In this document: positions 2,460-13,174 of the stretch, in pieces
Layout: each line of letters starts with the position of its first letter
Position numbering within the stretch: the first letter of the stretch is position 1
Assembly (NCBI RefSeq): GCF_000195975.1
Contig: NC_005070.1
Location: forward strand, 1,170,001 to 1,202,000
DNA length: 32,000 bases
DNA from: Parasynechococcus marenigrum WH 8102
Lineage (GTDB): Bacteria > Cyanobacteriota > Cyanobacteriia > PCC-6307 > Cyanobiaceae
Direction: 5' to 3'
Made by a program: the position numbers and the translations under genes
Notes under the pieces: model-generated
Seen by the model: the letters and a program-made list of their open reading frames with translations, nothing else
Database searches by the model: none
What the model was told of the DNA's origin: nothing

Positions 2460-2616
2460 CTCAGAATGGGTTCCAGTGCCGATTGCCGCTAGCTCATCTC
2501 ATCTCTTCGAAAGGAACTGCTGCATCAAGACTTGGCTATGGCCTGCTCCTCCAGGAGCATATTTTTTGCTTATAACCCTGTTGCTGCAGGGGGTCTGAGG
2601 CTAAATGGTAATTAGT

Positions 2617-2636
2617 GTGCGCATAAAAGTGCGCAA
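2617..2636 (+). repeat. Left-end paired 8-mer module GTGCGCAT-AAAA-GTGCGCAA
   Basis: Read directly from the sequence. It has the same architecture and orientation as 12285-12304. Candidate protein-binding site (arm-type or operator). Confidence 0.6.
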
Positions 2637-3009
2637 AGGCTGAGTCCTGCCAAAGGGCGCTTTACCAAGGCCAGCACTGGGATGTCGGCTTTTTTCAAGC
2701 TTAGCCGGGAAAGCTTGATTATCAAATAAGGACCACCGAGGCGGTCCCTATCTGCTGCGCTGAGCCACCAGTCCACCGTAAAACTGGCTGTTTTCATAAT
2801 ACTCAAAACAGCTAAGCTGTAAGTATCTCAAATACGCGTTTTAGTGCCCAAACGTTAGCTACCTATTCAGGCTGACCTGATCATCAATCGTCTTCGTCTT
2901 GAAGCCAGCATTGAACGTCAGCGTGCAGTCTTTGAAATTGATGATGACGCACCACATGTGCCGTCCTACGACCCACTAGCAAATCCCCAAAGCCGTCGCA
3001 TAGCAACCC

Positions 3010-3420
3010 ATGTCAGCTGAATTTCAATCAATCGACGATCAGATCAAGGCGTCGTACCAATCTGCATCACAAGTCGAAACTCAGGCCCGTCAGCTTGAAG
3101 CCAGAATCGCCAAGATCGATGGTGCAAAGCGATACCTGCCATCACGTCGTTACGGTCAACCGATCGACATAGCAAAAATCAGGTCAAACCTGACACTTAC
3201 ATCGCTTATTGCACAAGATTCCGCAGAGCTAGCTCACTTTTGCGGTATCCACCCTGGCATTCGTCACCGTATGGACGAGGAGAAGGAGGCCAGAGCCCTT
3301 GCAGCGCAGGCCCTGCAGATGCGCACTGAAGCTCTCCGCCAGCAGAACCAGCAGCGTCAGCAGCAGGTGCAGCAACGTTCTCAACTCTCTCCGTGGCAAC
3401 GCGGTTACGGGAGCGTCTGA
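3010..3420 (+). CDS. Hypothetical protein, predicted coiled-coil with a Gln-rich C-terminus
   Basis: 136-aa ORF with ATG start. It contains an RQQNQQRQQQVQQRSQ tract. Its stop TGA (3418-3420) overlaps the next ATG (3420-3422). Confidence 0.55.
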   Translation: MSAEFQSIDDQIKASYQSASQVETQARQLEARIAKIDGAKRYLPSRRYGQPIDIAKIRSNLTLTSLIAQDSAELAHFCGIHPGIRHRMDEEKEARALAAQALQMRTEALRQQNQQRQQQVQQRSQLSPWQRGYGSV

Positions 3421-3773
3421 TGCTTGCTCGTCCTCATCCCGCCCTGGGCTGGCTGCACATCAGCCCCGCCGACACCAGACGTGTCATGGATCGTCTGCTC
3501 ACTGAACGTGATGCAGCTCTCGAAGTCGACCCAACCTTCAGTGGTGTGCCGCAGTCGTTCATCGACTGGACATGGCAAACATGGTTGCCATCACACCTGC
3601 ATCGCTACGAGCAGCAGGTGCAGGAACACCTCAGCTACCTCAACTTCAAGATCGCTGAGCTGAACGGTGATCTTGAAAAAGCTGCTGGCGGCATCCTCGA
3701 CAGCCGTGATGAAGCCGTTGATCTTCGTGATCGCTTGCAGCGTGAGCTTGATGCTCGGGAGCTGCCGTCATGA
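3420..3773 (+). CDS. Hypothetical protein, translationally coupled to the 3010-3420 gene
   Basis: Same frame as track ORF 3393-3773. The internal ATG at 3420 gives a TGATG stop/start overlap with the upstream gene. The C-terminus looks coiled-coil (LNFKIAELNGDLEKAAG...LRDRLQRELDAREL). Confidence 0.55.
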   Translation: MLARPHPALGWLHISPADTRRVMDRLLTERDAALEVDPTFSGVPQSFIDWTWQTWLPSHLHRYEQQVQEHLSYLNFKIAELNGDLEKAAGGILDSRDEAVDLRDRLQRELDARELPS

Positions 3774-3839
3774 CTCGCTCAGGCCTCTAACCAACGCAAT
3801 CGCCATGGATGCCCCTACTGCCAAGAAAAAACTGTTTCC

Positions 3840-4097
3840 ATGCCCGAAAACCAAGTGGCAGCAACGTATTCCAATCAGCAGCTACCGCCGATACAACCGC
3901 TACCCATGACCAACATCCTTGATCACGTCTCACCAACACCAGTCCTTGAAGTAGACGTCTGGCCACGCTCAGCAACGCGCAAGGAATGGTTCGCCATCAC
4001 CAGGCGCATCATTCAAGACACCATCGCTGATATGAACCTCGATCCTGCTGCTGAAGCAGAAGTGATCGAGGCCTTCAAAGGTGCAGGGCTGTTGTGA
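3840..4097 (+). CDS. Hypothetical small protein (start ambiguous: 3840 or 3906)
   Basis: 85-aa ORF. The in-frame ATG at 3906 forms an ATGA overlap with the stop of a 34-aa basic ORF (3805-3909, MDAPTAKKKLFPCPKTKWQQRIPISSYRRYNRYP). Two gene models are therefore possible. Confidence 0.4.
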   Translation: MPENQVAATYSNQQLPPIQPLPMTNILDHVSPTPVLEVDVWPRSATRKEWFAITRRIIQDTIADMNLDPAAEAEVIEAFKGAGLL

Positions 4098-4577
4098 ATG
4101 ATTGGGAGCTGACTAACTAATGGTCGTGCAGCTGCAGCTCAATCTCTCCATAGAAGAGAGCCTAGCGCCAACGATGGCCACGCACAGGGTGGTGGTGAGT
4201 AGCAGTTCATTGAGCATCTTTTCCTCGTTGTCTCTGTCCTTGGTCTATGACAAATAGTCAGCACTTGTAGCTCTTGTTACAAGCCTGAATGGAGTGAAAA
4301 CCAGCCAGCAAGAGCTGCAGGCTCAGTCACTAGGCACTGCAGCGGATTTCTAAGATATCTTGCAAACCAGCGAAAATCACCTGCCATCACTAATTACAGA
4401 AAGCCTGAAAAATGACCTGAAGCAACCAATTCAATTAGCTATACTGTTAACACCAGTTGCACGGGAGGAGTTGGGGGATGTTCAGCGCAAAGGGTATTAG
4501 GGTAACTTGATCATTCCTACCATCATTGACCTCCATAATTAGAGCATCACGTCCAAATCAAGAAATGCACTGAAATC

Positions 4578-5051
4578 ATGGAATACGTTGATTTTCTAAA
4601 TAGCAACGCCAGGATCGTTCACAATCAGGTAGTCAAGGCTGGGTATCAGATAATAGAGAACTCTCCCTATTGCCTTATGGCAAAACAGATATTGGCATTG
4701 CACAACGGAAGAGAAAAAAAGATTTATCTATGCACACAAAATCTCAAAAATATCTTGGTTTGGAGTGCTCCGACGGGTCCGAGAAATGTGTTCGCAAAGT
4801 CTAAAGTAAAACAAGCAAGATTTTATATGAGCAAGGCCCTTACACATGAAGCTGTTCATGCAGCCCAGTATTGCAATAATAATAACCTAATTGCCCCAGA
4901 AAGATCATCTTCTGTTGTTACCGATTTCAAAAAACAAGCTATACAGCTCTCCCTTGCTGTTGGAGGAACAAAACAAAGGGAGGAAGAGGCCTACCTACTA
5001 GAAACAAACCCAGCATTCGTTGTAGCGGCACTTAAGAGATTTTGTTTTTAA
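4578..5051 (+). CDS. Small putative zinc metallopeptidase (HExxH zincin), family unassigned
   Basis: 157-aa ORF with ATG start and very AT-rich codon usage. It contains ALTHEAVHAAQY, an HExxH motif followed by Q, reminiscent of SprT-like or DUF4157-like zincins. An acidic REEEAY segment downstream could supply a third ligand. Confidence 0.6.
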   Translation: MEYVDFLNSNARIVHNQVVKAGYQIIENSPYCLMAKQILALHNGREKKIYLCTQNLKNILVWSAPTGPRNVFAKSKVKQARFYMSKALTHEAVHAAQYCNNNNLIAPERSSSVVTDFKKQAIQLSLAVGGTKQREEEAYLLETNPAFVVAALKRFCF

Positions 5052-5458
5052 TTTTTGCAGCCCTAAGCATTAATTGTTAACCGCTCTTTTTTTGCATGCA
5101 TTTTAAATCATTATCCCAGCTCTTCCAGCAACGCATTACAGTGGAAGCTTCCGCCTCTAGCTACCTCAAAACTAAGTTTCTTACTGCAATGCCGTAAGGA
5201 ATGGCTTACAACGTGCTGCCATTAGTGAATAAGAGAATTTACACGAAACTCCTAAGTCGAAGCCTATACGACTACACCGCGAAATTAGCGCTAGTCCATG
5301 TTAGGTGCGAATAGAACATAAAAAGCCTTTCAGCCGATAATTTGCCGTCCTAGTAGTACACATAAACTATATGCAAGTACACTGGTAGTGCCATTTGTTG
5401 CATTGGATGCAGCTTATCAAGTTAAAATTTGTCATTATTTATTTTTATAAAAATGTAA

Positions 5459-5656
5459 GTGCTTCTTAAACTACTTGTTTCGTTGACGACTATTTCATTT
5501 TCAAACATTGTGCAATTGCAATTATTAGTTCCATCGATTTGCACGACTCATTACGGATACAAAGAGCCGCTTTCTGCGGATTGGATCAAGATCGGCGAGG
5601 AAACCGGTAAGGATGGAATCACTACGCCAATTTTTACCGTTTGCAAGCCAGCTTAA
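5459..5656 (+). CDS. Possible small secreted protein
   Basis: 65-aa ORF with GTG start and a hydrophobic N-terminus (LLKLLVSLTTISFSNIV). It sits in the AT-rich block, preceded by TTATAAAAAT. Weak support. Confidence 0.25.
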   Translation: MLLKLLVSLTTISFSNIVQLQLLVPSICTTHYGYKEPLSADWIKIGEETGKDGITTPIFTVCKPA

Positions 5657-5860
5657 TCAAATTGAGAATAGTGCTTGAAATTATATACTCAAATTTCTAA
5701 ATTAGAATTATTTACCATTGATCGTTCTTCACAATCGTCATCATTCCTTAACATCAAGTGAACTAATCAAAGAATTTGAGGGCATAGCCGCAAATTTGAT
5801 TGATTGTAATGATTTGCAAGCCTTTTGAACTATAGGCCCGATACTTGTATCATTTGCTTC

Positions 5861-6148
5861 TCAAATTTGATTGCAAACATCGGCGACAATCCTGGACTCG
5901 TAAATATTCACGGGAATCTGCCATTCTTTCCACTGACCTTCAGAACCTGTGGAATTAAAAAGCCTGTCTTGGCAATAAACACCAATAAAAATTCTCTGAT
6001 CTTTATTGTTCTTAGCAGGTATAACAACAGCAAAATCATTTTTGCGAGCATATTTGAAATCTAAGCGAAGGGGACCATACTTTCTTTCTTGTGCAATTGC
6101 ATTAGATGCAAGAGAAACGACGCATAAAAATCCGAGAAATCGTTTCAT
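5861..6148 (-). CDS. Small secreted protein, unknown function
   Basis: Internal ATG at 6148 of track ORF 5861-6232 gives MKRFLGFLCVVSLASNAIA|QERKYG..., a canonical signal peptide. The ATG overlaps the TGA of the upstream ORF (ATGA at 6145-6148). Confidence 0.55.
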   Translation of the reverse strand: MKRFLGFLCVVSLASNAIAQERKYGPLRLDFKYARKNDFAVVIPAKNNKDQRIFIGVYCQDRLFNSTGSEGQWKEWQIPVNIYESRIVADVCNQI

Positions 6149-6378
6149 ACATGAAAATAGTTGGGAGGCTGCATAATTTTTAGATTTTGCAGGCTCTGGC
6201 TGTAGGAGTTCAATGTTGCGAAAAGGGGCCATAATGGTGGCAAGCCTGCGGGTCTGAAGGAATAAATTCCTCTCTGTAAAGTAGCAGTCGATAAATGTCG
6301 ATATGTTGTTTTAGGTACCAACCCACTGTCAACAGAGCCCACTAATGTAACCATGCCAAGTACTCCTGGCGTATGCAA
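6145..6378 (-). CDS. Hypothetical protein, coupled to the downstream secreted-protein gene
   Basis: 77-aa ORF whose stop overlaps the ATG of the 5861-6148 gene (ATGA). No recognisable domain. Confidence 0.35.
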   Translation of the reverse strand: MHTPGVLGMVTLVGSVDSGLVPKTTYRHLSTATLQRGIYSFRPAGLPPLWPLFATLNSYSQSLQNLKIMQPPNYFHV

Positions 6379-6479
6379 ACATTTATCAGGAAATGTCTGG
6401 AACTCAACAAATAACTCTTAAATAAGTGACATTTGAGCAATAGTTTAGCCTAAATCAGCTTGTAACTAGTGACAGCGAC

Positions 6480-6659
6480 TTAATCCCACAAGACTCTCGG
6501 TTGGAACCTGCCATTACGGCGCTCATCAAGTATAGCTTCAGCAACATCAACTTCACAAGTAATGCTTTCCAGTGGGCAGGCCAAAGCGCGAAAAGGCCTA
6601 TGTGAGCCTTCAGCGATGAGGCTTCCAATTGATTGGGCGTTGGTGATGTGGATCGTCAT
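6480..6659 (-). CDS. Possible 59-aa protein (below the ORF-track cutoff)
   Basis: Manual translation gives MTIHITNAQSIGSLIAEGSHRPFRALACPLESITCEVDVAEAILDERRNGRFQPRVLWD. An AGGA lies about 12 nt upstream of the ATG. No family recognised. Confidence 0.3.
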   Translation of the reverse strand: MTIHITNAQSIGSLIAEGSHRPFRALACPLESITCEVDVAEAILDERRNGRFQPRVLWD

Positions 6660-6771
6660 TTGTTAAATCCTATTCTCTTAGGTCTAAACCTGCTCCGTCG
6701 GAGGTAGTCGTATCACATCTCACCAAACAAACGCCCAAGCCACACCAACGTCAACTGTGATTCTCCTCCAA

Positions 6772-7005
6772 TCACTTAGGTGATTTGAAGAAACCCTCAC
6801 TCCAAGCTGCGGTGGCCCGCAGAGGCTTGAGAAGCTCCGTCAGCGTGACAGTAGATACAGCACTCATTGATCGTCGCTCCACAAACTTGACGCGGCAAAA
6901 CGCCAAGCGATGATTGAACTTGCAGAGGCACCGAACGCGAGAAATGCGATCATCATCTGGGAAGTATTCACGGGTAACATAAGAGAATGCTTCCAAGCTA
7001 CTCAC
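6772..7005 (-). CDS. Hypothetical Cys-containing small protein
   Basis: 77-aa ORF with GTG start, divergent from the HTH gene at 7112. Weak support. Confidence 0.3.
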   Translation of the reverse strand: MSSLEAFSYVTREYFPDDDRISRVRCLCKFNHRLAFCRVKFVERRSMSAVSTVTLTELLKPLRATAAWSEGFFKSPK

Positions 7006-7111
7006 TAACGACTAACGCTGTTGTTACCAATTTGCAGCAGCAACAACTGGTCACGTAATACGCGCGTCATCTCAGCAATGCCGCTGACCCAATAAATCGC
7101 CGCTGATCACC

Positions 7112-7495
7112 ATGGCAAGGACTACCGCGAAAGAACGTTTAGCCCGAAGGGAACATGCGTTGGCGTTGCTTGCTGACGGCAACAGCTTTAGAACAGTTGC
7201 GGCGCTTGTGTCGGGAAAGTACGGGGTGTCTGAGAAGACTGCTCAACGGGACTTGACTTGGGCGAGAAACAGACTGGTAGGAGAACTGAGTTCGACGGAA
7301 GTCAAAGAGCTGTTGGCATGGTTCTGCCATAGAACTCAGACCATCGTTCAGAAAGCCGAGAAAGCAGGTGCTTACGGTGCTGCTGTTGCTGGCATGAACC
7401 TGATTTACCAAGCGGTGCTGTCGCGCGAGCTGGACAGTATTCACAGCAATCGGCATCGGGGATACGGCAACCGACACGGGAACTACAAGGGTTAA
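7112..7495 (+). CDS. Small helix-turn-helix DNA-binding protein (regulator, or possibly small-terminase-like)
   Basis: 127-aa ORF with ATG start. The N-terminus KERLARREHALALLADGNSFRTVAALVSGKYGVSEKTAQRDLTWARNRL has an HTH-like pattern. It ends 8 nt before the TTGCGCAC pair at 7503-7521. Confidence 0.6.
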   Translation: MARTTAKERLARREHALALLADGNSFRTVAALVSGKYGVSEKTAQRDLTWARNRLVGELSSTEVKELLAWFCHRTQTIVQKAEKAGAYGAAVAGMNLIYQAVLSRELDSIHSNRHRGYGNRHGNYKG

Positions 7496-7502
7496 GGCCG
7501 AG

Positions 7503-7521
7503 TTGCGCACTATTTGCGCAC
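7503..7521 (+). repeat. Paired 8-mer TTGCGCAC-TAT-TTGCGCAC
   Basis: Two exact copies with 11-bp phasing, in the intergenic region between the HTH gene and the 3' end of the helicase gene. Confidence 0.6.
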
Positions 7522-7640
7522 AATGATGCCCTTGATATCAGGTATACCAGCCAGCAAGGTCTATCTCGGCTCCTGACATGCTCCTGATGTGGGAGATCAG
7601 GCATGGATTCTCCTTTCAAGGTCGTTGTCTCTGAGTTGGC

Positions 7641-7667
7641 TTTCAACCCTTTCAACCCTTTCAACCC
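7641..7667 (+). repeat. Three perfect tandem 9-mers TTTCAACCC (iteron-like)
   Basis: Copies at 7641-7649, 7650-7658 and 7659-7667. An inverted 10-bp copy (GGTTGAAAGG, 7769-7778) lies about 100 bp away, and a degenerate TTTCAAGGT at 7614-7622 is in 9-bp phase. The repeats sit immediately 3' of the primase-helicase genes. Confidence 0.65.
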
Positions 7668-7743
7668 AGTGCTGTTCATCCCAAAAAGAAGAGGTTCAGC
7701 AGTTGGCTATGCAATAGGAAAGGGTCGAAACCCTAGAAAGGCG

Positions 7744-9060
7744 TCAGGCACACCTCCTGCTTTTTAGCGGTTGAAAGGAAACCACCTTTCCGCGCTTGTG
7801 GTCTGAACGGGTGAGCTTCTCCACCAACCTTTTGTTGGCCAAAGCATCCAGCGCCTGCAGAGCCTTCTGACGGGCGTTGTCCCCCAGCTCTTCAGCCATT
7901 GCCTTGGCAACCTCAGCTGGCTCCATGGCCCGGCTAGTGAGCATCCAGTGCTCTTCCACCAACGACAGCACTTCACTGTGCCGTTCGGTGAGTTTTGCCC
8001 TGACTTTGCTTAGGTCCAGCTGTTCGCTGATGGTGTTGCTGTCGCCGTGGCAGGACCAAATGGCACGGTCAACCTGTTCAATCACGCAGTCCACCGACTT
8101 GCTGCTGCGCCCCTCTGTGGTGAGCCGCACCCAATTGTCTTCTTTAGCGTCGGGGTTGAGCCAATGCAGGTTCACCACATGACTCGCCATTCGGCTGAGC
8201 CCCCTTCCTGCTGATGCGTTGGAGGCACGTTCATGTGCCCGTGATTTGGAACTGTGGTGCAGCAACACCGTGGTGATGTTGAACGGCGCGATGCTCTCCA
8301 GCAGGTTCTGAAGAGGCTGGACAGCAGCGTCACTGTCGGAGTCCAGACCAAGCGGTCCAATCAGCGACAGAAAGGCATCTAGTACCAGCACTGCCCAGGG
8401 GTTTTGTTCGCAGTCAGCGGTGATTTTCTCAATGCCTGCCTCATCAAGATGCAGCCCGTGTTCACGGGTGTAGAGCCGCACAACGGGATCACACACCCTG
8501 TAGTTGTCCAGGTCGGTGCGAATCATCAACCCGTTGGGCACCATCACCTCACGCCAATCAGCCAAGGGTTGATCGGTGCCAACGATGATCACCTTTGGGC
8601 ATGGTGGAGCCAGGCTGAAGCGTTCAAGGAACTCACCTCTGCCCTTGGCCAGTTCGCCAAGGATGTTGCACACCACAGCCGACTTGCCGACCTTTTGAAG
8701 GGCAACCACCAGCGTCAGGGTCCGCGCTGCAATGAGGTCCTGAGCTAGCCAACGCTCCTCTGGAATCTTGAACACGTCATCTGGGCTGATGCCCTCTGAC
8801 TCCCCGCGCAGGTTGGCGCGAGCCGTTGCCACCACAGCCGCCAGATCCTTGCCGGTGAGGCTCAGCCCTAATTCACCAGCCTGTGCCCGCAGCAGGATGT
8901 TTCGCTCATGCCACGGGGTCTTGGCGACTAGGTGGTGCTCCGCCGCATCGTGCAGTTGAGCCAACGCATCAACCCTGTCGCTAAGGGCTTTGGCCTCTGG
9001 TCGTTTTGATGGATCAGCGGCCTCAACCTGATCAACGATTGCGTGTAGTTCAGCGTGCAT
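7744..9060 (-). CDS. RecA-fold replicative ATPase/helicase (AAA_25 / RepA-like) with a C-terminal winged-helix-like domain
   Basis: Walker A ALQKVGKS, Walker B AVLVLDAF, and a TVLLHHSSKS segment typical of AAA_25 proteins. The track start at 9144 is a TTG. The ATG at 9060 overlaps the primase gene end by 11 nt, so it is preferred. Confidence 0.85.
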   Translation of the reverse strand: MHAELHAIVDQVEAADPSKRPEAKALSDRVDALAQLHDAAEHHLVAKTPWHERNILLRAQAGELGLSLTGKDLAAVVATARANLRGESEGISPDDVFKIPEERWLAQDLIAARTLTLVVALQKVGKSAVVCNILGELAKGRGEFLERFSLAPPCPKVIIVGTDQPLADWREVMVPNGLMIRTDLDNYRVCDPVVRLYTREHGLHLDEAGIEKITADCEQNPWAVLVLDAFLSLIGPLGLDSDSDAAVQPLQNLLESIAPFNITTVLLHHSSKSRAHERASNASAGRGLSRMASHVVNLHWLNPDAKEDNWVRLTTEGRSSKSVDCVIEQVDRAIWSCHGDSNTISEQLDLSKVRAKLTERHSEVLSLVEEHWMLTSRAMEPAEVAKAMAEELGDNARQKALQALDALANKRLVEKLTRSDHKRGKVVSFQPLKSRRCA

Positions 9061-9964
9061 AGCGGCTCCATCCGTGTTGCTTGGCGTGGAAAAACAACGT
9101 TCCTGCACCGATCTGTTCGCCACCAGAACGGTCAACTTGCACAACGTCCCAACCGCATGAATGGCTAGGGCTGTGAGCCTCCATCAGGTCAATGGCTACC
9201 TGTTCATCGACGTCAATGTCTCGGCAGGCCGCCATCAAGCCCCACAAGATGTCGCGGTAGTCGGCATAGGTGCCTGAACCTTCAACACGCTGTGGGATTG
9301 CTTCCAGTGCGTTGACGATTTCCCGCAGTGGCAGTGAGTTGTGCCGACCGCTGGTAAACCGCTTCCTGGCAGCAGGTTGCGGCTTTGGCACCGGCAACTG
9401 TGGCAGCACTGCATCCAGCTCTTCAGCTGAATAACGCGGGCCGTCCGCACTGATGATTTGAACCTGACCCTGGGATTCACCACTTCGGTTGATGTAGTGG
9501 CTCCCTGCCATCCGCATCATGCGGTTTTTGCCTTTACGGGAGCGATCACACCCTTCAGCTGCGATGTGCAGCCTTTCCATCAGCACGGTCCAGAGCGCCG
9601 GTTCAATGGGGCTCTTCAACCCCAGATATTGGTGGATGCTCTTGCCTTGTGTGTCGATCTGGAAGGTTGGCTCCAGACCAAGGAGTGATTCGCACAATCC
9701 AACCTGTTTAGACCGTGGTCGGTCATCGTGTTCAAAGAACAAGGTGCTGCAAAGGCTGATGTCCTTTGCTTTGGTGCCGCCGATGTTGGGCTGCAGGTAA
9801 ATCCCGTAGCCCTGGTTGTTCAGATCCTGGAAATGTTCCAGGTCCATGGCGAAGTTGCCATTGATGGCTCCACCGGCTTTGCCTTTGTATGGGATGGCAC
9901 GGATGTGGACATCACGTTCATCCCTGCCAAGCAGGTCCAGATGCCAATGGGGCTTGGGCTGCAT
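9050..9964 (-). CDS. Archaeo-eukaryotic-type primase-polymerase (Prim-Pol) with a PriCT-2-like C-terminal domain
   Basis: AEP-like motifs: LFFEHDD (acidic motif I), KSIHQY (motif II His) and MRMAGSHYINR (motif III). The C-terminal YADYRDILWGLMAA is PriCT-like. ATG at 9964 (the track start at 9967 is TTG). Confidence 0.8.
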   Translation of the reverse strand: MQPKPHWHLDLLGRDERDVHIRAIPYKGKAGGAINGNFAMDLEHFQDLNNQGYGIYLQPNIGGTKAKDISLCSTLFFEHDDRPRSKQVGLCESLLGLEPTFQIDTQGKSIHQYLGLKSPIEPALWTVLMERLHIAAEGCDRSRKGKNRMMRMAGSHYINRSGESQGQVQIISADGPRYSAEELDAVLPQLPVPKPQPAARKRFTSGRHNSLPLREIVNALEAIPQRVEGSGTYADYRDILWGLMAACRDIDVDEQVAIDLMEAHSPSHSCGWDVVQVDRSGGEQIGAGTLFFHAKQHGWSRYAR

Positions 9965-9974
9965 CAATGATCAG

Positions 9975-9994
9975 TTGCGCACCACCTTGCGCAC
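9975..9994 (+). repeat. Paired 8-mer TTGCGCAC-CACC-TTGCGCAC directly upstream of the primase start
   Basis: Two exact copies with 12-bp phasing. In the gene orientation it reads GTGCGCAAggtgGTGCGCAActgatcattgATG. Confidence 0.6.
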
Positions 9995-10134
9995 TGACGC
10001 CCCGGGAGGCGTAACTTGCTTCAGTAGTGCCAGTGCATTTGGATGCAGCAACCTGCTGCTTGTATAGCAGTTTGGGGCTTAGCCTTGAGGTATCACGGGC
10101 CTCATGGCTGCTCAATTTTTGGGCAGTCATTTTT

Positions 10135-10353
10135 TTATACCTCGCGGTCTGCTTGTTTCTTGAACCGGCGGTAATCCCGCATGTGGTGCTCAAAAGAGTC
10201 CTGCCACATCTCTCTGTTGTCTTGGCTGCGGTGCTGTTCCTGTGCCCGTTCGGCGCACACTGATGCGTGACGCGCAGACTGCAGCATTTTTTCCTGCGCG
10301 GTTAACTTGAACGGCACTTTCTTGCCGTTGTCATCAAAGGTTTGGCGCTGCAT
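10135..10353 (-). CDS. Hypothetical 72-aa charged protein
   Basis: The ATG overlaps the stop of the upstream Xis-like ORF (TGATG at 10353). No domain recognised. Confidence 0.5.
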   Translation of the reverse strand: MQRQTFDDNGKKVPFKLTAQEKMLQSARHASVCAERAQEQHRSQDNREMWQDSFEHHMRDYRRFKKQADREV

Positions 10354-10598
10354 CAGACCAACTCCTTAATCAGTTGTTCTGCCTGCCGACGAAGCTGACC
10401 GCGTCGGCTCAGCAGCTCCTGAATTGCTGCAACTTCCCAGCGAATCGGGCTTTTAGGAGTTGGCCCCGAAAACCAGTGCTCACCTTCGATTAAGGGACCA
10501 CCTTGAGAGTCCTTTAGTCGTTGGAGATGGCCCTGCGACAGGCAGAGCATGGGGGCTGCAGCTGATGTCTTGAACAGCTGCCGAATACTATCTGGCAT
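10353..10598 (-). CDS. Excisionase/AlpA-like small DNA-binding protein (putative)
   Basis: The track ORF starts at TTG 10652, but the first ATG is at 10598. MPDSIRQLFKTSAAAPMLCLSQGHLQRLKDSQGGPLIEGEHWF...IRWEVAAIQELL follows the pattern of MerR-type excisionase HTH proteins. It sits between the integrase and the replication genes. Confidence 0.45.
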   Translation of the reverse strand: MPDSIRQLFKTSAAAPMLCLSQGHLQRLKDSQGGPLIEGEHWFSGPTPKSPIRWEVAAIQELLSRRGQLRRQAEQLIKELV

Positions 10599-10911
10599 GG
10601 AAATAGGCGCACGAAGGTAACGTGCAGCGCCCCCTTGTCTCGTCCGGAGCAACTGCGACCCGTTCCAGAGCCTTCGTGTTTGGGCAGTACCCCTAACCGT
10701 CGCCTAGCCGGTTAGTGCTTTGTTCCTTTGCAGGATTCCGACCGTCACATGATGCTGTGATCGCTGGCAAGCCAGAAATGTCGGGGCCGAACTCAGAGAA
10801 TTCCTTCGTGGGCAGGGTGAAGAGTTTCGCTTACCAGCACGGTGAAGTTCAAATGAACATCACGTTCATAATGTAACCACATCCATTCGGTTCTGCGCAA
10901 CCCTGATGTAT

Positions 10912-12267
10912 TTACATCTCTGAATTGACCCGTTCAACCTCTGCTTTGAGGCTGGCGGCGTCAATCCAACGGCCATACCAACGTTGATGCGTCACCAAAT
11001 CGTGGCCCATCAACTTTGCTGCAGCACGGTGCGACATCTTCGTGTCTCCGTAGTTTGCGCGCCATGCAAATCCGTGCCGCAAACTATATGGCGTGATGTC
11101 TTCCGTTCCAGGGTTGGATTTCAAATTTTTCCATGCTCTGCATCTAACGCAGAGCATTTGCCGGAACTCCACCCCGACGTAACTGAATGAATCAATGTGG
11201 TTCGGATGGTCAGGCTTCATCCTGTCAATTTGAACCTGCAGTGCCGCTGGTAGTTTCGCCTTGCCTCCAAAAAACTGCTGCAGGACTTTGGCACCTTCAC
11301 GATTGCGCCCTTTGATTTCCAGGGGAAAGATGTCCCTGGCCTCAGGCGGATGCTTCATCTGTTTTGTGTTCCGCTTGGTGCTGACAACCCTTGCCTGACC
11401 ATCAACCTGGTGCAGGGTTGCAAGTTCGCTTGGACGGATGCCGCAATATCCAACAATCGCCACGGCAACATATTCACGGACCCTGCCCTCTTCCAGCAGG
11501 TCATCCAATAGTTCAACGAACATATCTGGCTTGATTGCCGGAGTGAGTGCATGTGTTGTTGAAACTGTCTTAAACCCCACCAGCTCTTCAATCTGCTTTC
11601 TGTCCGGCGGTAGATACCTTTTCGGCATCCCGCAAACATCAACGGCGAATTTTAAAAATCTGCCGATGTCGTCCAGGCTCTTTTTGCGACCGGATGCACC
11701 TGCCTCAATCTGAGCGCCTGGTTTGTGCTCCTCACCATTAGGGCCAAGGAAGTGGACTTCCTTATATGCCTGCATCAACCCCAGACCAGTCCTGGGCTTT
11801 GGTTTGTGGTGGTTCAGTAGAGCCATGGCCCGCTCCAGCCTGTAGTCGTAGTCCCGCAGGGTTTTCCAGCGGCAGCTTGATTTCGACTTGAGGAATTTTT
11901 CCAAGACGGCATCCCAGCCTTTGTTCGTCGTCAGGCCATGGCCGGACTGAGCTTCCGCTTGCTCATCAAGGGTGTCGGCGTTGATCTTGGCAACTTCGTT
12001 CAGTTCTTTTTGAGGATCAGCCTGAAGCGCCTTGGCTATGGCGATGACCTTGTTGAGGATCTGGCGCTTGCTGGATGCCTCCCAAGGGAACGGCAGCATC
12101 ACGCTGCTGCGACGACCGTCTTCAGTCCTGTGAGTCAGCTTGCAGGAGCCAGACAAGTTGCCGTCGCTGCGCTTATGGCCGCAGACGTTCCAGCCCAAGC
12201 CGATTTCGGTCTTGATGTCTTGCCGCAGGCTCTTGGCCCACTCCTCACCAGACCGAAGCTTTGGCAT
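10912..12267 (-). CDS. int: Tyrosine recombinase / phage-type integrase
   Basis: The C-terminal catalytic domain has GIRPSELATL (Arg I), TPYSLRHGFAW (box with H-x-x-R) and LMGHDLVTHQRWYGRW (His and nucleophile Tyr). It also has a long N-terminal domain. Confidence 0.9.
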   Translation of the reverse strand: MPKLRSGEEWAKSLRQDIKTEIGLGWNVCGHKRSDGNLSGSCKLTHRTEDGRRSSVMLPFPWEASSKRQILNKVIAIAKALQADPQKELNEVAKINADTLDEQAEAQSGHGLTTNKGWDAVLEKFLKSKSSCRWKTLRDYDYRLERAMALLNHHKPKPRTGLGLMQAYKEVHFLGPNGEEHKPGAQIEAGASGRKKSLDDIGRFLKFAVDVCGMPKRYLPPDRKQIEELVGFKTVSTTHALTPAIKPDMFVELLDDLLEEGRVREYVAVAIVGYCGIRPSELATLHQVDGQARVVSTKRNTKQMKHPPEARDIFPLEIKGRNREGAKVLQQFFGGKAKLPAALQVQIDRMKPDHPNHIDSFSYVGVEFRQMLCVRCRAWKNLKSNPGTEDITPYSLRHGFAWRANYGDTKMSHRAAAKLMGHDLVTHQRWYGRWIDAASLKAEVERVNSEM

Positions 12268-12284
12268 CTCCTGGGTGCTGCCCT

Positions 12285-12304
12285 GTGCGCATTAGTGTGC
12301 GCAA
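12285..12304 (+). repeat. Right-end paired 8-mer module GTGCGCAT-TAGT-GTGCGCAA
   Basis: Read directly from the sequence. It lies 18 nt upstream of the integrase start codon on the opposite strand. A further exact GTGCGCAA is at 12341-12348. Confidence 0.6.
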
Positions 12305-12412
12305 AAACATGGATACAAGCAACCACAAGTGATCACATTTGTGCGCAACCTCGCCGGTCAATGCAGCGCAGATCAAAGGCTGGGCCTGTGTTTATGAGGA
12401 TTCTCAGGCGAC

Positions 12413-13174
12413 TTATGAGTTTTTCAGCGACTGCTCCTCCAGCAGCATGTTGAATTGCAGGAGCTGTTCGTCGGTAAGTTGCTGACGGCTGCTGGCCTGC
12501 AGATGCTCCTGCAGAAAGCCTCGAGCCTGCTCTGCCTTCCAGCCCAGCTGTTTGAGCATTTGATCGCCCTGTGTGATCAGATCACTGCGGCGAATCGGAA
12601 TGTGGGCTTGATCCGGCTGCTCCTGGGGCTGCAATTGCCGTAGCTGGCGCAGGTAGGCCACCAGATCTGCATAGCGGGTCAACCGATGGCGACTGGCATG
12701 GCCGAAGGCCCGTTCGAGGTAAACCCGTTCCTGATCTCGCCCCCAGCCAATGCGCTTCAGCTCCAGATCGATGGCGGTGAGTTCTTCGCTCCAGTCCTCC
12801 GGATCTGTCGGTGTTTCTGATGGTGGATCCGATGGGGGAGCGATCAGTTGCGGTGTCTCTGCTGCAGGCGGCTGATCCACCGCGACCGGCTTCGCCATTG
12901 CCCTCGGTTGTTTGATCGGTGCCGGTTGAGAACGGGATTCCGCCACCCGAGTCTGAGGAGGCGTTGGCTCTGGCTTTGGTTCGGGGGCGACCTGCGGCTT
13001 GGCATCAACCCCCGCAAGCTTCTCTTGCAAGCGCCGCCGGGCGCGCTCTTCTGCGTCTTCCGCATTGGCAGCTTCGCCCAGGCAGCTGGCGATGCAGCGC
13101 TCACCATTCCAGGCCTCGACGCGCACGATGCAGCGCAGGGTGTCGACGTGACACAACTCGGCTCGTACCTGCAT
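12413..13174 (-). CDS. Conserved hypothetical protein with a Pro-rich linker and two internally repeated C-terminal segments
   Basis: 253-aa ORF with ATG start and core-like GC. It has an internal duplication (RIGWGRDQERVYLERAFGHASRHRLT versus QLGWKAEQARGFLQEHLQASSRQQLT). Confidence 0.7.
   Translation of the reverse strand: MQVRAELCHVDTLRCIVRVEAWNGERCIASCLGEAANAEDAEERARRRLQEKLAGVDAKPQVAPEPKPEPTPPQTRVAESRSQPAPIKQPRAMAKPVAVDQPPAAETPQLIAPPSDPPSETPTDPEDWSEELTAIDLELKRIGWGRDQERVYLERAFGHASRHRLTRYADLVAYLRQLRQLQPQEQPDQAHIPIRRSDLITQGDQMLKQLGWKAEQARGFLQEHLQASSRQQLTDEQLLQFNMLLEEQSLKNS

Follow-up and report, generated by a model that had tools for sequence, protein, structure and literature searches.

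Arm-type sites of heterobivalent integrases are known from lambda Int (P1/P2 and P'1-P'3), mycobacteriophage L5, and HP1. Here, we describe a repeated 8-mer, GTGCGCAA, in a marine Synechococcus island that lies in a 32,000-nt stretch of Parasynechococcus marenigrum WH 8102 (contig NC_005070.1; the whole stretch is called the window). The island is a tycheposon-like element of approximately 9.9 kb, inserted in the 3' end of a slr1353-family gene. Like the arm sites of lambda, L5, and HP1, the motif is a short noncore word that is present in tandem on both arms of attP, tens to approximately 150 bp from the core, and the integrase (Int) of the element has an extra N-terminal domain. Unlike in those systems, copies are also found 2.3 and 4.9 kb from the core, around a replication module and in one case inside an open reading frame (ORF) together with a core-like palindrome, and the N-terminal domain is without detectable homology to known arm-binding domains. 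Judging from sequence comparison, we favor, at about even confidence, the reading of the motif as a site for arm-type binding by the N-terminal domain of a heterobivalent tyrosine integrase, with reuse inside the element.

Integrase promoters that overlap an att arm are under negative autoregulation in KplE1, and the same was predicted for many tRNA-associated integrases (PMC2951348). As in KplE1 (IntS/TorI), int of the window abuts att and reads away from it, tandem sites lie 17 to 37 bp upstream of the int ATG, and relatives are tRNA associated. In contrast to KplE1, the element targets the 3' end of a protein gene and its sites are reused outside att. With tycheposons (10.1101/2020.12.28.424599), the element shares a tyrosine recombinase, a small putatively Xis-like protein, a primase/helicase, and cargo, and its relatives share tRNA 3'-end targets, flanking partial tRNAs, and tandem arrays. 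It differs from the tycheposons of Prochlorococcus and Synechococcus presented there by sitting in a protein-coding gene, and as far as that work was searched, it presents no arm-type or regulatory motif. In the window, the tyrosine recombinase gene is at one end of the element, att repeats flank it and an attP is detectable, and a primase/helicase module is present. There is no tRNA in the window; the relatives target tRNA-Ala(GGC). In marine picocyanobacteria, variation among genomic islands is driven by tycheposon-like elements, whose hallmark genes are co-induced but for which no cis-regulatory logic is known to have been reported.

Motif copies and attachment sites

Motif copies were counted in the window and in the host flank of a related locus in Synechococcus sp. 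RS9902. In the window, GTGCGCAA occurs seven times, at 2629(+), 7503(-), 7514(-), 9975(-), 9987(-), 12297(+), and 12341(+), and the variants GTGCGCAT (2617 and 12285) and CTGCGCAA (10893) were also found. All these positions had been given in an earlier account made from the letters of the window (the sequence-only reading), and all were confirmed. Its claim of an excess over chance was borne out as well: dinucleotide shuffles contained on average 2.09 copies and at most 6, and 0 of 100 reached seven. No exact copy was detected in the window outside 2629-12348, in agreement with the claimed absence from the flanking core. The sites matching GTGCGCA[AT] numbered 10, compared to 3.9 +/- 2.1 in simulations. 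Furthermore, there are four tandem pairs, each on one strand, with spacings of 12, 11, 12, and 12 nt. Approximately 0.001 pairs were expected, and any pair at all was present in 1 of 300 simulations. Thus, the pairing proposed for four loci stood, but its description as one helical turn is only approximate, since 12 bp corresponds to approximately 1.14 turns.

The pairs near the two extremities had been considered the element ends. The true ends are instead a 21-bp direct repeat, CTGCTCCTCCAG[G/C]AGCAT[A/G]TT, at 2543-2563 and 12431-12451. The attL core (CTGCTCCTCCAGGAGCATATT; 2543-2563, plus strand) reads CTGC-TCCTCCA-GGAG, and the displaced tail of the host gene, NMLLEEQAIAKS followed by the stop, is still legible to its left. 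The attR core (CTGCTCCTCCAGCAGCATGTT; 12431-12451, plus strand) lies within the last codons of the slr1353-family host gene (12413-13174, minus strand). Its sequence CTGC-TCCTCCA-GCAG and the anticodon arm of tRNA-Ala (CTGC-ATGGCAT-GCAG) both fit the formula CTGC-N7-GCAG. The identity of the two att copies ends directly after CTGCTCCTCCAG, and a 7-bp overlap between CTGC and GCAG would be consistent with this end point. The metagenome contigs L012-L016, whose integrases are 90% identical to that of the window, contain an uninterrupted attP in the order P arm, core, P' arm, and the contiguous attP of L013 has the same core between the two arms. In L012-L016, the distance from the single P-arm site to the P' pair is 164 nt, exactly as obtained when the two ends in the window are joined. 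Since the contiguous attP matches the joined ends, the att sites and the element size of approximately 9.9 kb are fixed. Elements at the same host site were found in L017/L018 and in Synechococcus RS9902 (L029).

The joined attP has the order int ATG, 17 bp, pair 12285/12297, 32 bp, single site 12341, 83 bp, core, 57 bp, pair 2617/2629. All arm copies share one orientation, while the internal pairs 9975/9987 and 7503/7514 have the opposite one, and the motif is the only word common to the P and P' arms. The P' arm pair (GTGCGCAT/GTGCGCAA; 2617-2636, plus strand; 12-nt spacing) starts 57 nt past the core sequence GGAGCA, and homologous pairs are present in L013, L029, L005, L003, and L020. The P arm pair (GTGCGCAT/GTGCGCAA; 12285-12304, plus strand), located 17 nt upstream of the int ATG at 12267, was found in every context of an Int homologue that was fetched. 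The single P arm site (GTGCGCAA; 12341-12348, plus strand) follows 44 nt after the pair and precedes the core by 83 nt; a pair-to-single offset of 43 to 44 nt recurs in L012-L018, L020, L021, L028, and L001. The end-proximal copies are best read as attP arm sites, that is, as a recombination architecture that overlaps the int upstream region and not simply as a transcriptional regulon.

The P arm pair probably lies across the -10 and +1 positions of the int promoter. This promoter was placed by eye (-35 GGTTGC, -10 between the two motif copies); in a scan for the sigma-70 consensus, neither the P arm nor the primase leader yielded a sigma-70-like site. Two further sequences are conserved in G- and A-type elements alike (for the types, see below): GCAACCACAAGT between the P arm pair and the single site (12305-12340) and TGTTTATSAGGA between the single site and the core. 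They are candidates for the -35 region of int and for the site of an accessory or excision factor.

Two copies lack conservation in relatives and were for this reason not counted as part of the system. One is CTGCGCAA located 3' of int (10893-10900, plus strand), where L012 and L029 read TTGTGCAG. A-type elements have a word similar to this copy inside the coding end of int, in the opposite orientation. The other is an additional GTGCGCAT at 3319(-), which had escaped the sequence-only reading; it lies within the ORF 3010-3420 and is missing from the homologue in L005. Both are probably chance matches outside the system. Accordingly, while TGCGCAACC does occur on both sides of int, at 10894 and 12342, the significance attached to this flanking is probably a coincidence.

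Site types among related elements

Thirty related loci (L001-L030) were fetched via the helicase, Int, and p99, the product of a small gene adjacent to int. The sequence-only reading had proposed a search for the motif in related islands. In these loci the layout is kept, but the word differs between elements, being GTGCGCA, GATGCGCA, GTGCGCCA, or TAGCGCA. All sites within one element bear one variant. The G type was found in the window, L012-L022, L027, L029, and L030; the A type in L001-L002, L004-L008, L010-L011, and L023-L024; the C type in L003, L028, and the left part of L002; and the TA type in L025-L026. GTGCGCA is used by elements with integrases 45 to 90% identical to that of the window. 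Most helicase relatives have GATGCGCAA at the P arm, the primase leader, the edge of the replication origin (ori), and the P' arm. The corresponding word is GTGCGCCAA in L003, L028, and left L002 and TAGCGCA in L025/L026.

At the pair in the primase leader, homology between the window and the A-type elements extends to every base (..TGCGCAAGGTGnTGCGCAACTGA..). Each of the two copies has a G/A exchange at the same position, and the spacer and flanks are the same. At the protein level, this switch changes the leader residues D to S and D to G. Since the variants switch in concert, we suggest that one element-encoded protein reads all sites. In this respect, the proposal that a single element protein links the ends, int, and replication was supported, whereas its wording as a regulon was not, because the end copies are better described as att arms.

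Which element component could be the reader is constrained by the types. The helicases of L005 and L011 are 91 to 96% identical to that of the window, yet their sites are of the A type, and the ori of L003 resembles that of L001, yet its sites are of the C type. Because the motif type is independent of helicase, primase, and ori, these are, on this comparison, excluded as the binder. In line with this, it is extremely improbable that helicase or primase binds the motif as a replication iteron, or that the motif is a host word such as a repetitive extragenic palindromic (REP) element, a restriction-methylation site TGCGCA, or the box of a host regulator. One pair does adjoin the origin and another the primase gene, and TGCGCA is a 6-bp palindrome of the kind recognized by restriction systems. 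However, separate iterons (GGGTTGAAAG, three copies) are conserved irrespective of the type. The TGCGCA core occurs in the window at expectation (15 copies versus 17, with 11 of the 15 within the island), and approximately 33 kb of host flank contained no pairs and only one exact 8-mer (0 in approximately 22 kb of the window, 1 in approximately 11 kb of RS9902). Furthermore, the C-type word GTGCGCCA breaks the palindrome, and the coexistence of different types in one single-cell genome speaks against a single host factor.

The single-cell genome is that of Synechococcus sp. AG-673-F03 (L002), in which positions 2787-3110 contain, in a row, a C-type P' pair (two copies of GTGCGCCAAA), a tRNA fragment, and an A-type P arm with int. 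By its sequence, this is a tandem of two related elements of different site type at one tRNA-Ala.

The 127-aa helix-turn-helix (HTH) protein p127 (7112-7495) had been put forward as a candidate binder, and a role as a repressor or partition-like protein could be imagined, since its gene ends 8 nt before the ori pair. Its N terminus is HTH-like, with a weak Pfam match to HTH_23 (E value of 0.07), and the gene adjoins the ori pair in the window, L003, L005, L011, and L002. However, its phylogeny is discordant with the motif type: p127 of L020 (G) is 59% identical to that of L005 (A) and 39% identical to that of the window (G), the A-type p127 proteins are only 20 to 36% identical to each other, and p127 of L011 (A) is closest to that of L003 (C). 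Moreover, L006 has the pair without an adjacent p127 gene, and there is no site upstream of the p127 gene itself. We thus disfavor p127 and regard it as a very improbable reader of the motif.

On the same comparison of relatives, the motif type follows the int-p99 module. L012-type elements and the RS9902 element have an Int 90% identical to that of the window, a homologous p99, and identical arms, but a DUF3987 helicase and no internal pairs. An initial view that L012-type elements are devoid of p99 was wrong: the gene is lacking from the list of called genes but present in the DNA, and tblastn and reading of the DNA showed a p99 approximately 73% identical to that of the window.

The RS9902 locus (L029; CP047949.1, 8306-17450) is a complete element at the same host site, with homologues of the 451-aa integrase and of p99. 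In addition to the DUF3987 helicase gene, it harbors genes for a prohead protease and a major capsid protein, and GTGCGCA is present in its arms only. It resembles a capsid-encoding satellite.

Integrase and p99 as candidate binders

The integrase gene (10912-12267, minus strand) encodes a divergent tyrosine integrase of 451 aa with an extra N-terminal domain of approximately 100 aa. It was recognized by the Pfam family Phage_integrase (E value of 1.2e-5, just below the cutoff) and the PHROG integrase family phrog_1 (E value of 6e-10). The N-terminal domain is conserved and predicted to consist of a helix, three strands, and a helix (predicted local distance difference test [pLDDT] score of 78). 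Residues that are invariant in three deep G clades but different in A are 2.6-fold denser in this domain, and the discriminating residues are on predicted strands at positions 28-30, 43, and 60/62. The first strand has the signature VC[GC]H in the G type, L[RA]NH in the A type, VRDH in the C type, and VSEQ in the TA type; these represent few independent switches, with p99 linked. We favor the integrase as the binder because the sites are present on both arms at arm-type distances and there is no other candidate arm word, because its conserved extra N-terminal domain has type-discriminating residues on strands, and because only the integrase would recognize both parts of the composite core-like and arm-type sites described below.

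The rival binder is p99 (10353-10598, minus strand; 81 aa from an internal ATG), which may be Xis/AlpA-like, as judged from its sequence pattern and the place of its gene. P2 Cox, 186 Apl, and P4 Vis are excision factors that bind both att and promoters. RdfS of ICEMlSymR7A is an excision factor with the same two kinds of targets (PMC11963761). Like these, p99 is a small element-encoded protein that could act on direct-repeat arrays at att and promoters, where it would assemble head to tail on the tandem repeats and serve in excision, int repression, and control of primase and helicase. We consider such a role for p99 possible, but rather unlikely, and give it about half the weight of the integrase. 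Nearly all elements, those of the L012 type among them, encode a p99 homologue in the stretch from int to the primase leader, and p99 clades agree with the motif type as well as Int does. Tandem direct repeats with 11- to 12-bp spacing would suit winged-helix excision factors, and there are documented excision factors with binding sites in attP as well as in promoters (PMC11963761, PMC2951348). Mitomycin C co-induces int, xis, and pri/hel of tycheposons (10.1101/2020.12.28.424599); this fits shared control and can also be counted for p99.

Several observations argue against p99. There was no match in Pfam or NCBIfam, and the AlphaFold2 model reached a pLDDT of 61, too low for a structure search, with an order of secondary structure at most compatible with a winged helix, so that DNA binding by p99 is itself putative. 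If the sites belonged to p99, no repeated word would remain as integrase arm sites. The putative recognition helix is not split by type, since that of the window (G; SQGHLQRLKD) is nearer to L023 (A; SQGHLKRQME) than to L020 (G; SHGHLLLQMQ). L028 has an intact P arm and only a truncated p99 remnant, although this element looks decayed. The core-type-like palindrome that accompanies the internal sites points to the integrase. For sites of the Xis/Cox type, a location on one arm between arm-type sites and core would be expected, but the pairs are on both arms and inside the element. Finally, RdfS-type factors bind without a strict consensus (PMC11963761), whereas the motif described here is strict.

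Other observations weigh against the integrase. A Foldseek search of the PDB and BFVD with the model of its N-terminal domain gave nothing significant, a profile search of PDB sequences with this domain found nothing, and an hhalign comparison to the lambda Int N terminus found nothing either. No family was assigned by Pfam, PHROG, or NCBIfam to the Int N-terminal domain, p99, p72, or p127. Furthermore, int and p99 are adjacent and largely coinherited, the type switch correlates with p99 too, and p99 has type-disjoint columns. With few switches and adjacent genes, Int and p99 are inseparable by phylogeny. In L021/L022, the base at position -2 of the arm sites (C or T) tracks the Int clade and not the p99 clade; given the physical linkage of P arm and int, this was not accepted as decisive for Int.

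Internal pairs and the replication module

In the subfamily with an AAA_25 helicase, two internal pairs bracket the primase-helicase-ori module. In the window, the module comprises a primase-like gene (9050-9967) and the AAA_25 helicase gene (7744-9060), together spanning 7744-9967 on the minus strand. One pair (two copies of GTGCGCAA; 7503-7521, minus strand; 11-nt spacing) has the stop codon of the 127-aa gene on one side and the ori region on the other. A pair at this place was also found in L030 (G), in L002, L004, L005, L006, and L011 (A), and in L003 (C). The other pair (two copies of GTGCGCAA; 9975-9994, minus strand; 12-nt spacing) is in the primase leader, in the codons ..S-A-Q-G-G-A-Q..

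The sequence-only reading had taken all copies as noncoding, apart from low-confidence candidate ORFs across two of the pairs. This leader pair is not simply noncoding. It lies in a conserved leader ORF (9918-10130, minus strand; approximately 54 codons, ATG at 10130, from a conserved ATAAAAAAATG), which in relatives is an N-terminal extension of the primase. In at least five diverged lineages, the ORF stays open, and the codons of the pair are read in one shared phase (xGT GCG CAx). The window, L030, the A-type elements, L020, and L027 all have the ORF continuing across the pair; in most of these it is fused to the primase, and in L027 it ends just past the pair. In the window, an extra C at 9949-9952 (a C run in the minus strand), as compared to L030 and L001, puts the leader out of frame with the primase (9050-9967) and splits the two. 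It could reflect a true frameshift, an error in the sequence, or an L027-like arrangement, and an in-frame ATG at 9964 could start the primase despite the extra C.

The internal pairs are accompanied by sequences resembling the att core. A palindrome of the core type, CTGC-TATACAA-GCAG (10056-10070, minus strand), is located 61 nt upstream of the primase-leader pair. CTGC-N7-GCAG was found exactly 61 nt upstream of this pair in every lineage (11 loci) and of the ori pair in L003, with a background of 0.18 per kb. At the ori pair of the window, a fragment similar to the element's own core (CAGGAGCATGTC versus CAGGAGCATATC in attP; 7575-7586, minus strand) has GGAGCA 57 nt upstream of the pair and is suggestive. 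Fragments of the own att core near the ori were detected in the window/L030, L003, and L011 (P values of approximately 0.011, 0.017, and 0.08 versus shuffles), and cross-type controls were negative. By their composition, the internal pairs can be viewed as putative pseudo-att sites.

A GC-rich hairpin (9997-10012, minus strand) is present directly 5' of the primase-leader pair. Such hairpins, with a GC stem of 6 to 7 bp and a 4-nt loop, are immediately 5' of primase-leader pairs and of A-type ori pairs. The stem is kept by differing complementary sequences in L030, L001, L002, L004, L010, and L027, and hairpins also lie at equivalent places in L005, L006, and L011. In A-type elements, a CACTG-N7-hairpin-pair module is common to both internal sites.

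If the integrase is the binder, its N-terminal domains would occupy the tandem sites. At attP, attL, and attR, the bound arm sites would build the recombination complex (intasome), and the P arm pair, which covers the int promoter region, would mediate int autoregulation according to the KplE1 paradigm. Integrase on the core-like and arm-type sites in the primase leader and beside the ori would block the replication module in its expression and activity, or gate it. In this way, replication could be coupled to the recombination state via internal pseudo-att sites. The 5' flank of the motif (GT, GAT, or TA, and GCGCC) would have diverged so that coresident elements at the same tRNA-Ala site avoid cross-reaction. 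In its full form, the proposal is that pseudo-att sites in direct orientation (core-like sequence, approximately 57 to 61 bp, arm-type pair) bracket primase, helicase, and ori, with the integrase as a licensing factor or repressor, and/or with exchange or excision of the replication cassette between coresident elements, catalyzed by the integrase. We advance it as a speculation that is unlikely as it stands. If it is true, the G, A, C, and TA arm specificities would represent compatibility groups, and related elements could share one tRNA-Ala in tandem without interference.

Arm-type or excision-factor sites that double as operators are known in kind; pseudo-att pairs around a replicon with concerted specificity switching are unusual. 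Tn916 Int, which binds within oriT, and the stoperators of mycobacteriophage L5 are examples of a recombinase or repressor at asymmetric sites away from att or operator, which are oriented with transcription and gate another process. The proteins and motifs are different from those described here, and a functional parallel would be hypothetical.

Some points weaken the pseudo-att proposal. The true distance from core to P' pair in tRNA-type relatives is approximately 119 nt and not 61 nt, so that the geometry of the supposed att mimics fits only the window-type attP. The exact 61-nt spacing in the leader could be due in part to a coding region of fixed length. The own-core similarities by the ori are individually weak (P values of 0.01 to 0.08), and arm-type sites several kilobases from att are unusual.

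Alternatively, the internal pairs could be relics of former att junctions, left by the fusion of tandem elements or by cassette capture, with only the att-arm copies functioning now. Tandem arrays exist, as exemplified by the C-type P' arm, tRNA fragment, and A-type P arm in L002; core-like fragments adjoin the internal pairs, which coincide with mosaic breakpoints; and the L012-type and RS9902 elements do without such pairs. However, relics would be expected to decay and not to coevolve, and the internal pairs are kept across the G, A, and C types and switch with the arms despite the resulting leader changes (D-A-Q versus S/G-A-Q). We therefore judge this origin of the pairs improbable.

Under our favored reading of the motif as an integrase arm site, the elements follow a strict and readily searchable site grammar: a P-arm pair plus single site, a P' pair, optional replicon pairs, and a CTGC-N7-GCAG core. 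It offers a means to delimit the elements and sort them by type, bears on a possible role of the integrase as a gatekeeper of replication, and suggests how related elements could stack at one tRNA without cross-excision.

The putative origin (7640-7740) contains three iterons (CTTTCAACC; 7640-7667, plus strand), which are kept whatever the motif type, and an inverted repeat at 7718-7740 (GAAAGGGTCGAAACCCTAGAAAG). It is strongly conserved in all helicase relatives. A search of viral contigs with the helicase found no relative. The helicase C terminus is weakly similar to a LexA-type winged helix (E value of 0.12). In L012-type elements, a repeat, GCTTAAAAGC ... GCTTAAAGC, 20 nt apart, is found where the primase-leader pair would be (L012, 2551-2580; L013, 4489-4518), and it may be a site for another protein.

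The island encodes, in addition to the tyrosine integrase, p99, and the primase-like and AAA_25 proteins, a 72-aa ORF, the convergent 127-aa HTH-like protein, and low-GC cargo. It is flanked by marine Synechococcus core genes (TerC, fmt, TldD/PmbA, an RNase II-like protein with an RNB domain, RecJ, and FtsH). An Rfam scan of the window matched no family. In the P' arm, approximately 25 nt right of the core, positions 2576-2597 (CCTGTTGCTGCAGGGGGTC) correspond to a degenerate anticodon arm and variable region of tRNA-Ala (CCTGCATGGCATGCAGGGGGTC). This degenerate copy suggests that the window-type element formerly targeted tRNA-Ala and later switched to the slr1353-family gene. Approximately 60 to 120 nt downstream of the P' pair (2690-2760; 4400-4470 on the reverse strand in L005), a conserved TTTTTCAAGCTTA ... 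AAATAAGGACCACCGAGGCGGTCC may represent a promoter and leader hairpin of the cargo operon. The GC content falls from 0.62 to approximately 0.52 already left of attL (1500-2460), over the DUF2808 gene (1902-2459), and this region may be older island material beside the element.

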